Sequence record: PZ452581.1
Length of the DNA stretch: 64,000 nt
Origin: a phage
Direction: 5' to 3' (one strand)
Shown here: piece by piece, positions 18,035 through 22,487 of the stretch
Numbering within the stretch: the stretch's first letter is position 1
Layout of the letters: every line of letters starts with the position of its first letter
Program-made: the position numbers and the translations under genes
Notes under the pieces: model-generated
Told to the model about the DNA's origin: nothing
The model's database searches: none
Seen by the model: only the letters and a program-made list of their open reading frames with translations

Positions 18035-18291
18035 TAAATTTTCCTTGCTAAATCGCGAATTTGACCTACAGTATAGTCTTGAATATAAACTTTATTAATA
18101 GGCTCATCAATAAATTTTGCCATAGATTCAATATCTTTTTGTATCTCTTTAAGACTGTATACTATCTTTGAAGCTTTTTCGCGAATAGTAATATTTTCAG
18201 GACCTGGATTTTCTTCAATGACAGCTTTAACATTTGTCATAAGAGATTTAAACTGGTACCAACTCAACTCAATCATTAATAATCGCCTCAT
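18034..18291 (-). CDS. Hypothetical small protein
   Basis: 85-aa ORF; similar to the next ORF. Confidence 0.5.
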   Translation of the reverse strand: MRRLLMIELSWYQFKSLMTNVKAVIEENPGPENITIREKASKIVYSLKEIQKDIESMAKFIDEPINKVYIQDYTVGQIRDLARKI

Positions 18292-18529
18292 AAAGATAGC
18301 TAATTTCGCCTAAAACGTAATCATTGATTGTAACAGTTTTCACTTCACCACAAAAGAATTCTAACGCAATTAAATCTCGTTCAATTTCTTCTAATTGAAG
18401 CATCAACTTACTAGATTCAATTTTTACAGTTTCACGATTTTTACCATGAGCAATTTCATAAATTTCGCTAACTTTATCCTGAAGAAGATAAAACTGATCT
18501 TTAGTTATTTCCACGAATAGCTTCCTCAA
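18269..18529 (-). CDS. Hypothetical small protein
   Basis: 86-aa ORF, paralogue-like to 18034-18291. Confidence 0.5.
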   Translation of the reverse strand: MRKLFVEITKDQFYLLQDKVSEIYEIAHGKNRETVKIESSKLMLQLEEIERDLIALEFFCGEVKTVTINDYVLGEISYLYEAIIND

Positions 18530-18761
18530 ATTTAATTAGTAATTTACAGACACTTTCATCTAGTGTAATTACCGTATCTGTATTACTGTGATATGATTGT
18601 TTTTCAATTCGTTTAATTGCTAATATAGTATCACTTATAAGATAAAGCTTATGAAGGAGCTCAGCTCCTGTTATCATAACATTAAGATTATCTTGCTTAT
18701 TAGTATGCTTCCTTATACCATCTATTAGACGATTTAAATATTTTGAATTGATGTTAATCAT
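18501..18761 (-). CDS. Hypothetical small protein
   Basis: 86-aa ORF. Confidence 0.5.
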   Translation of the reverse strand: MININSKYLNRLIDGIRKHTNKQDNLNVMITGAELLHKLYLISDTILAIKRIEKQSYHSNTDTVITLDESVCKLLIKFEEAIRGNN

Positions 18762-18767
18762 ATATCC

Positions 18768-20087
18768 TCACACATAAAATACGTCATAACGACCACGGGT
18801 AACACCAACATAAAGAAGTTGTTGAGCCAATTCAGCATCTGCATAATGAATACAAGGCGTATAAATGAAAGCACGGTCTACAGACATACCCTGAGCTTTA
18901 TGGAATGTTGATGCAGGAAGTGCTTTCACTTTACTAAACTGTGATTTAGCATCCCAAAAATCACTCCACGGAGCTTTTCCGCCTTTGTTCCAATTTTTAT
19001 AAGTTTCTGCCGTTTTACCTAAAAATAGGTTAAACTTATATAGCTCTTCATCAGATGAAATTATTTTAATCTTTTCACGATAATATTCATCATCGCCGTA
19101 AGTTTCTACTGTTAAATCCCAATGACGAATTAAGTATTCTCCAGGAACACCACGAGCTTTAACAAACGTCGATGTATACTCTGCTTCTATAATACGAACT
19201 AATTGTCCATTATTAAAAATAATTTCTGACACAGGCTTTCCATCAATTTTATATGTTTTAATTAATGGTTCCTGCATTACAATAATTTCACCGACAATAA
19301 AATCTTTATCAGTTTCAAAAATCTTTTTACGAATAATGCTATTTAACTTGTCAACAGATTTATTCGTAAATGCCATTACGCGATTTTCAAACAAATCATC
19401 TAATGATTTTACGATTGAAAAATAATTTACCATAAAATCGCGTAAAGCGGTATCACCAGTAAATCCACGTACTCCATGCCCGTCAACAACTTTATCATAA
19501 ATCCACTTACCGTTACGAACATCAGTAGCTACATCAATAATAGGAGCATTACTGCGTTTAACTTCAGTAAGTTCACACTGATAAAAATCTTTGTGTGTAA
19601 AGAATGGACTGATATAAGCAGTATTTTCTCCTGGGTCAACAGGTCTAATTTGCTTATTATCACCTATTCCAATTATAGTACACCAAGGTGGAATAGTTGA
19701 AAGCAAAATTTTAAATAGCTTTCTATCATACATTGACACTTCGTCGCAGATTAATACCTTGCATTTAGCTAAATCTGGTACTTCCTTCTGTTCAAAAAGA
19801 ACGTTTTCTTCATACGTAACTGGGTTAATTTTAAGAATACTGTGAATAGTACTCGCTTCTTTCCCCGACAGTTTTGAAAGAATCTTTTTAGCTGCATGAG
19901 TAGGAGCTGCTAAAATAATACCAGTTTCACCCGTAGATATTAAAGCTTCAATGATGAACTTAGTAAGAGTAGTCTTACCAGTACCAGCAGGTCCATTAAT
20001 AGTTACATGATGTTTCTTTTCTTTAATAGCCCTCATAACGATGTTAAAGGCATTTTTCTGGCCTTCTGTCAAATCATCAAATGTCAT
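18768..20087 (-). CDS. dda: DNA helicase Dda (SF1B)
   Basis: 439 aa, MTFDDLTEGQKNAFNIVM...INGPAGTGKTTLTKFII Walker A; matches T4 Dda. Confidence 0.95.
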   Translation of the reverse strand: MTFDDLTEGQKNAFNIVMRAIKEKKHHVTINGPAGTGKTTLTKFIIEALISTGETGIILAAPTHAAKKILSKLSGKEASTIHSILKINPVTYEENVLFEQKEVPDLAKCKVLICDEVSMYDRKLFKILLSTIPPWCTIIGIGDNKQIRPVDPGENTAYISPFFTHKDFYQCELTEVKRSNAPIIDVATDVRNGKWIYDKVVDGHGVRGFTGDTALRDFMVNYFSIVKSLDDLFENRVMAFTNKSVDKLNSIIRKKIFETDKDFIVGEIIVMQEPLIKTYKIDGKPVSEIIFNNGQLVRIIEAEYTSTFVKARGVPGEYLIRHWDLTVETYGDDEYYREKIKIISSDEELYKFNLFLGKTAETYKNWNKGGKAPWSDFWDAKSQFSKVKALPASTFHKAQGMSVDRAFIYTPCIHYADAELAQQLLYVGVTRGRYDVFYV

Positions 20088-20395
20088 CGGAAAGTCCCTG
20101 CAATTGGAATACTAACAATACGCCCAGTATCTAGAATTCGTTGATATAATCTTTGTGTATCTACATCAGGCTTAACATGTTTAACTTCTATTTTATTAAA
20201 CCAAAACTTGCGTGGAGTCTCAACTAGTCTTGGAATTCCCATACCTAAAGCTAGTTTATATTGGTCTTTGAGAGTAGTAAAAACTCTATCAGCAATCTCT
20301 CTTTCAAAAAACACAGCAGGACGATGTTCATCAAGTGGAACTGGCGCCGTAAATCCGTCTTTGTCTCGGTAAACTATCGCATATACATAAACCAT
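20084..20395 (-). CDS. Hypothetical protein (dda.1-like)
   Basis: 103-aa ORF. Confidence 0.5.
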   Translation of the reverse strand: MVYVYAIVYRDKDGFTAPVPLDEHRPAVFFEREIADRVFTTLKDQYKLALGMGIPRLVETPRKFWFNKIEVKHVKPDVDTQRLYQRILDTGRIVSIPIAGTFR

Positions 20396-20396
20396 A

Positions 20397-21143
20397 TTAT
20401 CCTCGGATAAGTTTAAAAATTGAACAATTTAGCGGGTATCCTCTTTTCAGTTTAAGTTTATCAATAAAAGACAAGTTTTGATACCGCTCTACACCTTGAA
20501 TAATTTTATCACACATGTCATATTGCATTTCTGCTTCTGACAACTTTTTCACAATTTTCCAATCCGAGCCTTTAAGAAGAACGTTCAGTTTAACAACTTC
20601 AGCGCCTTCTGCTATGCGAGAACCATCAATACGAGCTTTAAGTGCTATAATCCTTAGCTTAATGTCAGAGGTCTGTTTTGATTTAGAAAGCTGAGAAATG
20701 TGTTCAATTCGATTTTCACGCTTTTTCTGTATAGCTTTAATTTGATTATAAGTCTTTTTGATTTTAGCCCATTTCTTTTCATCTAAATTTAGTTTATGAA
20801 CTTTTTTCGCAGATGAACGACCAATTCGCAAAGCAAATAAATCACGCTTTTCAATCAACTCTTCTAAAGTATAATCAGAACGAAATGTATTATACTTTTT
20901 CTTTACTGCAATAACGTTCCCTTTAATGTATCCAATGTTATTATCAAAACGTTCTAATGATAATTTCTCTCCTTCAATACGATTATCAAAAGGTTCTCCC
21001 GAGTAAGCGCAAACTTTCTGATCTAAAATGTTCTTAATGTAATTGAAGTCTAAGTTAAAATCTTTAGAACGTCTTTTAGCAGATGCCTGAGTGTGCTCTA
21101 AACGACGTTTAATTTTACGAATTTGATTATTAGACAGTTTCAT
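20397..21143 (-). CDS. Hypothetical basic protein at T4 srd position, with a degenerate HNH-like motif
   Basis: 248 aa, length close to what I recall for T4 Srd. Segment CAYSGEPF...LSLERFDNNIGYIKGNVIAV resembles an HNH core with the catalytic D-H replaced. Confidence 0.4.
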   Translation of the reverse strand: MKLSNNQIRKIKRRLEHTQASAKRRSKDFNLDFNYIKNILDQKVCAYSGEPFDNRIEGEKLSLERFDNNIGYIKGNVIAVKKKYNTFRSDYTLEELIEKRDLFALRIGRSSAKKVHKLNLDEKKWAKIKKTYNQIKAIQKKRENRIEHISQLSKSKQTSDIKLRIIALKARIDGSRIAEGAEVVKLNVLLKGSDWKIVKKLSEAEMQYDMCDKIIQGVERYQNLSFIDKLKLKRGYPLNCSIFKLIRG

Positions 21144-21264
21144 ATTTTTCTCACATCTTACGGACGATTGACTACTATACTATAACATTTTTACCTTGGC
21201 TTGTAAACAATTTTATGAAAAATGCTTCAAAAATTTCATGGTATAATGAATCTAAGTCCTTCCA

Positions 21265-21867
21265 TTATAGATTAAATCCTTCAAAATCAAGAGTATAGAT
21301 AGTGTATGTTGAATACTTTTTATACTCATATCTATCTGCAATTCTAAATACACTTCCAGCTGGTATCATTACTTCTTGTTCATCTGAAACTAATTCCATA
21401 TTACGATAACGATGGCTATCCGGAAACTTAAAGTTTGGATTGTATTCTTTACAGCGTAGAGCTTTTATAGCATACTCCTGGAAATTGAATACCATAGGAG
21501 CTTTGAATTCAAAAATAACCTGTGTGTTATACTCTAAACCGGAAGCAAAATGTAGAGCTATATTTTTATCATATGAAGCTGATACGACTTTATCAAATGT
21601 AATAATATCAATTCCTTGATTTAACACCTGCTTAGTCTCGACTGGAACACCTCTCCAAAGAGGTTTATCGTTTGGAACCAAACGAGATTTGATTATTTCA
21701 TTTAACCAAGTATGGTCATCTGGCTTATTGGTAATACAATGAATTAAAAGTTCAATTTCAGATAAATTAAACCCTTCAGAAAGTAATTCTTCACGAATAG
21801 AAGCACGCACCGATGCATCCATTGATTTTATTTTAAAATCTTTTAGTTGCATTACTGAGTATTTCAT
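21265..21867 (-). CDS. modA: ADP-ribosyltransferase ModA
   Basis: 200 aa with R-S-E signature (LWRG, SAS, DEQEVMIP); length equals T4 ModA. Confidence 0.8.
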   Translation of the reverse strand: MKYSVMQLKDFKIKSMDASVRASIREELLSEGFNLSEIELLIHCITNKPDDHTWLNEIIKSRLVPNDKPLWRGVPVETKQVLNQGIDIITFDKVVSASYDKNIALHFASGLEYNTQVIFEFKAPMVFNFQEYAIKALRCKEYNPNFKFPDSHRYRNMELVSDEQEVMIPAGSVFRIADRYEYKKYSTYTIYTLDFEGFNL

Positions 21868-22487
21868 TCAACTACCTCAATATCATAAACTTTAAATGTT
21901 CCAAATGAATCGTGTAATTTTTCTTTTGAAATAGAAGTTATTCTATACTTTCCAATTGGAATCATCCATTCTTGTTCATGCACAATCATCATTAAGTTAT
22001 CAGTACGCTCTGAATCTAACCCATCAGTATCTTCATATGTATACTTAAACTCAGTATTAGGAGAAGAAAGTATAATATCGCTGATATGGTCAGAGTAATT
22101 AAAAGCTTTATCAGTTTTTAAACGAAGTATTGTTTCAGTGAAATATTCAGCATAAGAAAAAGAACACGCTGTATGCAAACTAGTAGTAAATGAATCTACC
22201 CTGTTCGTTGAAAACACTTCTCCAACTTGTAAATCTTTAATAAGTTCTTTTGTCGATTTTGATATACCACGATATAATTGATAAGGTGATTTAGTTAAAT
22301 GCTTTTTAACGATTTTATTCAACTGCCGATGAAGAGCTTCATTCTTTTTTGCTTCCATACATTGCCAAAGAACAGACTGCTCAAAATCAGTAAATTTTTC
22401 ACAGACCTTTTTATACATATCATATTGAAAATCAACGCTTTCAGCTTTTATAGATAACTGTTCAACATCTGCAGGATTAATAATCAT
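21864..22487 (-). CDS. modB: ADP-ribosyltransferase ModB
   Basis: 207 aa with R-S-E signature (LYRG, TTS, HEQEWMIP); length equals T4 ModB. Confidence 0.8.
   Translation of the reverse strand: MIINPADVEQLSIKAESVDFQYDMYKKVCEKFTDFEQSVLWQCMEAKKNEALHRQLNKIVKKHLTKSPYQLYRGISKSTKELIKDLQVGEVFSTNRVDSFTTSLHTACSFSYAEYFTETILRLKTDKAFNYSDHISDIILSSPNTEFKYTYEDTDGLDSERTDNLMMIVHEQEWMIPIGKYRITSISKEKLHDSFGTFKVYDIEVVE

Follow-up and report, generated by a model that had tools for sequence, protein, structure and literature searches.

In the canonical HNH and Endo VII-type nucleases, among them F-CphI of the 'DHHRN' family, a catalytic histidine is accompanied by CxxC...CxxC zinc ligands, and mutation of these residues inactivates the enzymes (PMC6083498). 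The restriction enzyme PacI, which is experimentally active, has no such histidine, and the job of this residue is done by a tyrosine of the inter-strand loop (PMC5714182, PMC4081073). One Asp and one Asn coordinate the only metal of the site, with the tyrosine positioned as the general base (PMC4081073). In the classification of the His-Me fingers by Jablonska et al. (2017), the PacI group, group 20, comprised 78 viral, 4 bacterial and 6 eukaryotic sequences with no Pfam family, and is dominated by giant-virus proteins, e.g. from Pandoravirus (PMC5714182). In a 2025 study, two lactococcal phage genes were classed as 'PacI-like' by HHpred (PMC12724721). His-Me fingers that are inactive are also known, such as SMAD MH1 and Enpp, which have neither the His nor an equivalent Tyr (PMC5714182).

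The Srd protein of phage T4 belongs to a different field of work. According to the passages that deal with Srd in three papers (PMC4980113, PMC7430671 and PMC13232886, citing Qi et al. 2015), it binds RNase E at the N-terminal half, which is the catalytic one, raises the activity of this enzyme on host mRNA and accelerates the RNase E-dependent decay of these transcripts. Most sequence records describe it in other terms, as 'Srd anti-sigma factor' or as 'postulated decoy of sigma factors RpoD and RpoS'; the label 'hypothetical protein' also occurs. In cells with defective RNase E, Srd reportedly induces no mRNA decay, and deletion or disruption of srd is said to lower the phage yield and to reduce T4 growth. 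On this account, Srd would not act as a general RNase by itself.

In the literature searched we found no mention of an HNH, PacI-type or His-Me finger domain in Srd. The gene, its RNase E phenotype and the PacI-type variant of the HNH fold are already known; the assignment of Srd to this variant, which we describe here, appears to be new, and so does the scale of the phage family that is related to the N-terminal domain of Srd.

The srd gene and its locus

The window analysed here is a stretch of 64,000 nucleotides of phage DNA (sequence record PZ452581.1). The gene under study lies at 20,397..21,143 on the minus strand, and the list of open reading frames gives it as an ATG-to-stop frame of 248 codons plus the stop codon. 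The product has a calculated mass of 29.06 kDa and a calculated pI of 9.99, with 57 Lys and Arg against 30 Asp and Glu, three Cys and three His. This agrees with a first-pass annotation of the DNA, which had described a basic protein of 248 residues with the motif CAYSGEPF; the frame and the motif are both present. The same annotation had assigned the gene to T4 srd by its position, which is correct and understates the case: alignment with T4 Srd (NP_049634) shows two proteins of equal length that are identical in 247/248 residues, with I70V as the sole difference. The phrog_1400 'Srd' profile matches residues 4-248 with E = 2.5e-108, and the gene order dexA-dda-dda.1-srd-modA-modB is that of T4, with dda.1 downstream and modA upstream of srd. 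The frame is T4 Srd itself, beyond the mere occupation of the srd position.

Several hundred T-even genomes match the 2-kb srd region with 95-99% identity, and colinearity over positions 19,900-21,900 extends to about 500 related genomes, all with full coverage and srd in the same position. Srd-like proteins also occur further afield, in distant T4-like phages that infect Acinetobacter, Serratia, Vibrio and other hosts. No second copy of the Srd N-terminal domain was found within the 64-kb window.

In the gap between modA and srd there is a promoter-like site (TTTACA-17 nt-TATAGT, with TG upstream; 21,179..21,207, minus strand), which is a consensus match only, at 10/12 positions. Overall, the region holds no more such sites than shuffled sequences do. 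On the other side of dda, the window carries an 86-residue open reading frame (18,501-18,761, minus strand) between the dexA.2 homolog (18,269-18,529) and dda (18,768-20,087). T4 has no counterpart of this frame, and there the end of dexA.2 is separated from dda by 22 nt. The products of dexA.1 and dexA.2 are paralogues with 33% identity, and the 86-residue product is only about 18% identical to both.

An HNH-type fold in the N-terminal domain

[quoted passage not shown] The first-pass annotation had proposed an HNH-like core and had named structure prediction as a way to check it, and a beta-beta-alpha core is indeed found in the AlphaFold2 models, with a pLDDT of 88.5 for full-length Srd, 89.7 for residues 1-112 and values above 90 in the beta-beta-alpha region. 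The modelled domain starts with two helices (residues 5-24 and 33-40), which are followed by a knuckle remnant, a strand (61-65), a loop (66-76), a second strand (77-81) and the helices 82-90 and 93-107. The core itself, as delimited by DSSP on the model and by mapping on PacI, comprises residues 61-90 (LSLERFDNNIGYIKGNVIAVKKKYNTFRSD; 20,874..20,963, minus strand), of which residues 61-80 read LSLERFDNNIGYIKGNVIAV.

Three kinds of comparison lead to the same fold. The PHROG profiles match residues of about 10-100 of Srd as endonuclease (1.4e-18), HNH endonuclease (1.4e-16) and endonuclease VII (1.3e-7). The Foldseek search with the full-length model was dominated by coiled coils, which match the C-terminal helices, although PacI was prominent there too, and the N-terminal domain was therefore modelled alone. 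The top match of this model in the PDB is the Gme HNH nicking endonuclease (4h9d; probability 1.00, E = 3e-3), and PacI (3ldy; probability 0.99) gives the best TM-score (TMq of 0.56 over 114 columns), with Cas9 HNH domains lower; the E-values of the HNH matches range from 3e-3 to 5e-2. A search of the PDB sequences with Srd as a single sequence gave no match, and PacI was reached only with a family profile, built from 47 diverse family domains. Against all PDB sequences this profile gave five matches at E <= 10, the best four of which are HNH enzymes, namely PacI (0.031), Gme HNH 4h9d (0.11) and then two Cas9 HNH domains. With hhalign, the family aligns with PacI at a probability of 84.5% and a pairwise E of 7e-6. 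The model libraries are silent on this point: no HNH-type or Endonuclease_7 model matched Srd in Pfam, even at E <= 10, or in NCBIfam, and PADLOC returned nothing relevant. Taking these results together, the likeness to an HNH core far exceeds what chance would give, and we hold the assignment of fold and family with high confidence.

The core fold and the order of motifs in Srd are those of the canonical HNH and Endo VII-type nucleases (4h9d, the Cas9 HNH domains, T4 endonuclease VII and F-CphI), but the residues at the key positions differ. The canonical enzymes carry the histidine in a D-H or DHDH motif together with CxxC...CxxC, whereas Srd has E-R and a single Cys at these places. The replacement of Asp-His by Glu-Arg, which had already been noticed in the first-pass annotation, is exact, as the E-R of the family aligns with the D-H in the 'MDHL' of 4h9d. 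The canonical general base is thus not present in Srd, and histidine is absent from this position in all 183 family domains compared (see below).

Comparison with PacI

The residues that replace the canonical motif in Srd are found again in PacI (3ldy/3m7k), whose sequence reads "...CGYCG...LGVDRSDSFEGYSPQNARLACFICNRIK", with Asp-Arg and no histidine. PacI residues 32-119 align with Srd residues of about 19-91, including the helices that precede the core, and the sequence identity between the two is only about 16-18%. In this alignment, the acidic metal ligand D92 of PacI corresponds to E64 of Srd, R93 to R65, D95 to D67, G99-Y100 to G71-Y72, the structural Asn N104 to N76, the metal ligand N113 to N85, and K116 to R88. 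The tyrosine is unambiguous on the PacI side, as Y100 is the sole Tyr in that loop. The two proteins thus share a beta-beta-alpha-metal fold in which an acidic ligand is followed by Arg instead of His, a Gly-Tyr pair in the loop, a structural Asn, and an Asn ligand in the helix with Lys or Arg three residues on. Judged by this alignment, Srd keeps a counterpart of every catalytic position of PacI, in E64, R65, Y72, N76 and N85. In the window, the E64-R65 codons (20,949-20,954) and the Y72 codon (20,928-20,930) were read in the raw sequence; the N76 codon lies at 20,916-20,918 and the N85 codon at 20,889-20,891, all on the minus strand.

The differences from PacI are also clear. The acidic metal ligand is Glu in Srd and Asp in PacI, Srd has an additional helical domain of 140 residues, and it stands outside any restriction system. 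The PacI zinc ligands C63, C66, C109 and C112 correspond to C45, S48, K81 and Y84 of Srd, so that three of the four Cys are missing, and this loss is family-wide. What is left of the site in the PacI alignments is the segment C45-A-Y-S-G-E-P-F (residues 45-52; 20,988..21,011, minus strand), a zinc-knuckle remnant. Because the Cys4 site is absent throughout the phage family, we regard its members as a sister or variant of PacI without the zinc, and not as PacI proper. C45 itself (codon 21,009-21,011, minus strand) is a lone invariant Cys: the other three zinc positions are never Cys in the family, and position 48 is Ser or Thr throughout.

Like the PacI group, the Srd family is mostly viral and has no Pfam model. 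The fold matches of the Srd model in BFVD, where the top matches are Srd-like, include proteins of Pandoravirus, Pithovirus, Klosneuvirus and Bodo saltans virus. In addition, the domain is repeated in tandem, two to four times, in some family proteins of 320-850 residues (P0080, P0133, P0150 and P0166-P0170), and one copy in P0080 reads 'SLERLNN..GYTKDNC'. Going by the fold matches to giant-virus proteins, these multi-copy proteins may represent that part of PacI group 20 which belongs to the giant viruses.

Conservation of the putative active site

To see how far these residues are kept in the family, we scanned 1.84 billion representative proteins (clusters at 50% identity) with HMMER, which gave 7022 clusters for the N-terminal domain at E <= 1e-3 and 574 at E <= 1e-10. 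Conservation was assessed on 183 domains, made up of the best 150 HMMER matches and close homologs. In this set, Y72 and N76 are present in 183/183 domains, C45 and N85 in 182/183, and R65 in 181/183, where His never takes its place; position 64 is Glu or Asp in 182/183 (141 Glu and 41 Asp), and position 88 is Arg or Lys in 168/183. A second group consists of the 63 clusters with the full Srd architecture, in which both domains are present and the identity of the N-terminal domain falls to 35%. Here C45, E64, R65, Y72, N76 and N85 are each found in 63/63 clusters. The fixed positions of the family have the pattern of a working site and not of drift, as far as conservation can tell.

These results bear on the view, put forward in the first-pass annotation, that the core of Srd is a degenerate and inactive HNH site. 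The term 'degenerate' fails because [D/E]-R, which is near-invariant, is a signature of the whole family and not a decay specific to Srd. The term 'inactive' does not follow from the Glu-Arg either, given that active PacI has Asp-Arg and that the Tyr and the counterparts of both metal ligands are still present in Srd. The sequence of Srd gives no sign of inactivation, and a role in binding only is the less likely reading. Of the earlier interpretation as a whole, the identification as Srd, the HNH fold, the E-R position and a plausible homing ancestry stand, and the decay and the loss of activity are not supported.

Relatives of the N-terminal domain

A tblastn search with the N-terminal domain of Srd returned 1414 phage records, including genes of unrelated phages labelled 'HNH endonuclease' or 'endonuclease'. 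Three relatives, in S-SKS1, a Mydovirus and HF0522, had no match to any Pfam family. The relative of the Klebsiella Mydovirus carries "TVERIDDKKGYVRGNV". The one of Klebsiella phage vB_Kpn_HF0522 (PP836776.1) is a protein of 187 residues with "GSIDRVNPGLGYVKGNV...N", encoded between the two halves of an RNA polymerase gene. This Drulisvirus polymerase gene contains an insert with a net length of 785 nt (positions 1087-1881 of the examined segment), which is found in 4 of about 254 related genomes; in the others, e.g. KP_NC6, the polymerase gene is uninterrupted. An Rfam group I intron model covers the insert end to end (E = 3.7e-5), with a score that falls short of the gathering cutoff. Such presence and absence is the pattern of an intron-borne homing endonuclease, which speaks for DNA cleavage by histidine-less members of the family, and the HF0522 relative suggests that there are mobile, active nucleases within the family of the Srd N-terminal domain. 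The homing-endonuclease origin considered in the first-pass annotation is plausible for Srd because a relative sits in this group-I-intron-like insert. Between HF0522 and the intron-less KP_NC6, the flanks of the insert are 99.7% identical upstream and 92.1% downstream, an asymmetry that is expected from co-conversion.

In Synechococcus phage S-SKS1 (NC_020851.1), a PacI-like frame (1237-1776 of the examined segment) with "SLDKI...GYIKGNV...N" lies directly downstream of psbA. Its product has Asp-Lys where canonical enzymes have D-H, and its N-terminus is rich in Cys. The same psbA neighbourhood is occupied in phage S-PM2 by F-CphI, an unrelated homing endonuclease of the Endo VII type. Homology of the S-SKS1 frame to F-CphI, which would have been direct proof of activity in the family, was rejected, as F-CphI is a DHDH enzyme of the Endo VII type with a histidine and belongs to a different family.

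The behaviour of relatives as mobile intron endonucleases, together with the motif that Srd shares with active PacI, speaks against the strongest alternative, in which the N-terminal domain, as a domesticated homing-endonuclease fold, is catalytically dead, serves only to bind nucleic acid or RNase E and keeps its conserved polar residues for folding or binding. We regard this alternative as rather unlikely, and several observations are consistent with it: Srd has neither the canonical general-base His nor the zinc site, and its effect reportedly requires RNase E. Adaptors of RNase E such as RapZ act by protein-protein contact (PMC7430671), and the recruitment of a non-catalytic His-Me finger has a precedent in SMAD MH1, a nuclease fold reused for DNA binding (PMC5714182). 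Indirect counter-evidence to a nuclease activity of the Srd family also comes from the Skunavirus PacI-like HNH, the one of the lactococcal phage genes that was tested in vivo, which had no significant exclusion activity (PMC12724721). The precedent differs from Srd at the very residues in question, however, since the inactive SMAD MH1 and Enpp have lost both His and Tyr, whereas the Tyr and both metal-ligand equivalents of Srd are retained in 63/63 clusters. We consider it probable that the N-terminal domain of Srd is a functional, non-degenerate site; that it is truly catalytic is a tentative step further, for which our confidence stops a little short of even.

The C-terminal domain and the link to RNase E

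The C-terminal domain (residues 111-248; 20,397..20,813, minus strand) has a pI of 10.1 and is predicted to be all-helical, with long helices at residues 122-153, 159-191 and 195-222, and its tail is conserved at R220, G235 and P237. Searches of Pfam, NCBIfam, PADLOC, the PDB (Foldseek) and BFVD gave no homolog beyond Srd-like proteins, and its fold matches in the PDB are generic coiled coils only.

RapZ and CsrD act, as Srd does, through the catalytic N-terminal domain of RNase E to boost cleavage (PMC7430671). They have no kinship with Srd in sequence or in fold, and the range of targets differs, with one sRNA for RapZ and, as reported, host mRNAs broadly for Srd.

A function of Srd on the host sigma factors, as an anti-sigma factor or a decoy of sigma-70 and sigma-S for which the HNH likeness would be irrelevant, is stated in the sequence records and is, in our view, highly improbable. 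The published accounts, in the passages that concern Srd, point to RNase E (PMC13232886, PMC4980113, PMC7430671). Residues 89-118 of Srd do align with residues 569-598 of RpoD (13/30 identities, pairwise E = 0.008), but this patch is the helix after the nuclease core, which is common to endonuclease-like relatives (e.g. '...SLEDLI...'). No Pfam sigma-70 region is found in Srd even at E <= 10, and hhalign gives a probability of 0.24% for the Srd family against RpoD. Homology to sigma-70 was thus rejected, with a patch of 30 residues as all that is shared. This patch, the sole measurable sigma-70 likeness of Srd, lies at 20,874-20,879 and 20,790-20,873 of the window (minus strand), and presumably gave rise to the name 'similarity with rpoD' and to the anti-sigma label in hundreds of records.

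We give hardly any credence to srd as a selfish, free-standing homing endonuclease gene like seg or mob, whose product would cut srd-less relatives: T-even genomes carry many free-standing homing endonuclease genes and the N-domain family has intron-borne and free-standing members at variable positions, but srd occupies one constant site in about 500 related genomes with full coverage of the region, Srd-like proteins reach the distant T4-like phages named above, the extra C-terminal domain is conserved, and disruption of the gene reportedly reduces T4 growth.

Discussion

The comparisons presented here suggest that Srd probably consists of two domains, a PacI-type His-Me finger (residues 1 to about 110) and a basic, helical C-terminal domain. 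A mobile, zinc-less endonuclease of the PacI and tyrosine type has probably become fixed in the genome and fused to the helical domain, giving rise to Srd. The parent family would be the very large, mostly phage-borne group of endonuclease-like genes, both free-standing and intron-borne, to which the relatives described above belong.

From the correspondence with PacI, we infer an active-site geometry for Srd around Y72, E64 and N85. E64 and N85 would hold a divalent metal in a one-metal site, and R65 and Y72 would face the backbone phosphate. The N-terminal domain would be the working part that engages nucleic acid during host shutoff, binding RNA (or DNA) and possibly nicking or cleaving it, and the helical domain may supply the contact with RNase E, oligomerisation or both. 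The contact between Srd and RNase E would direct or activate the host enzyme. A bolder version of this model, in which Srd is an active, tyrosine-dependent one-metal nuclease that docks on RNase E and in this state cuts or nicks host RNA, or host DNA with its cytosine, is conceivable, although we think it rather unlikely. If it holds, Srd would be the first PacI-type enzyme in host shutoff, and its own cutting would help T4 to erase host expression.

The PacI-type assignment bears on how T4 destroys host mRNA within minutes, a process in which Srd turns up RNase E. The apparently intact site singles out E64, R65, Y72 and N85 for point mutants, and the domain boundary near residue 110 could be used to separate the binding of RNase E from the engagement of nucleic acid. 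For the family as a whole, the PacI group, which counted 88 sequences in 2017, is not small, as its relatives number thousands of phage clusters and include intron-borne genes, and the label 'HNH endonuclease' on members of the Srd family masks the absence of the catalytic histidine. If the bolder version of the model is true, the thousands of zinc-less phage proteins with [D/E]-R...G-Y...N...N would make up a large and hitherto unrecognised class of HNH homing endonucleases that lack the histidine.
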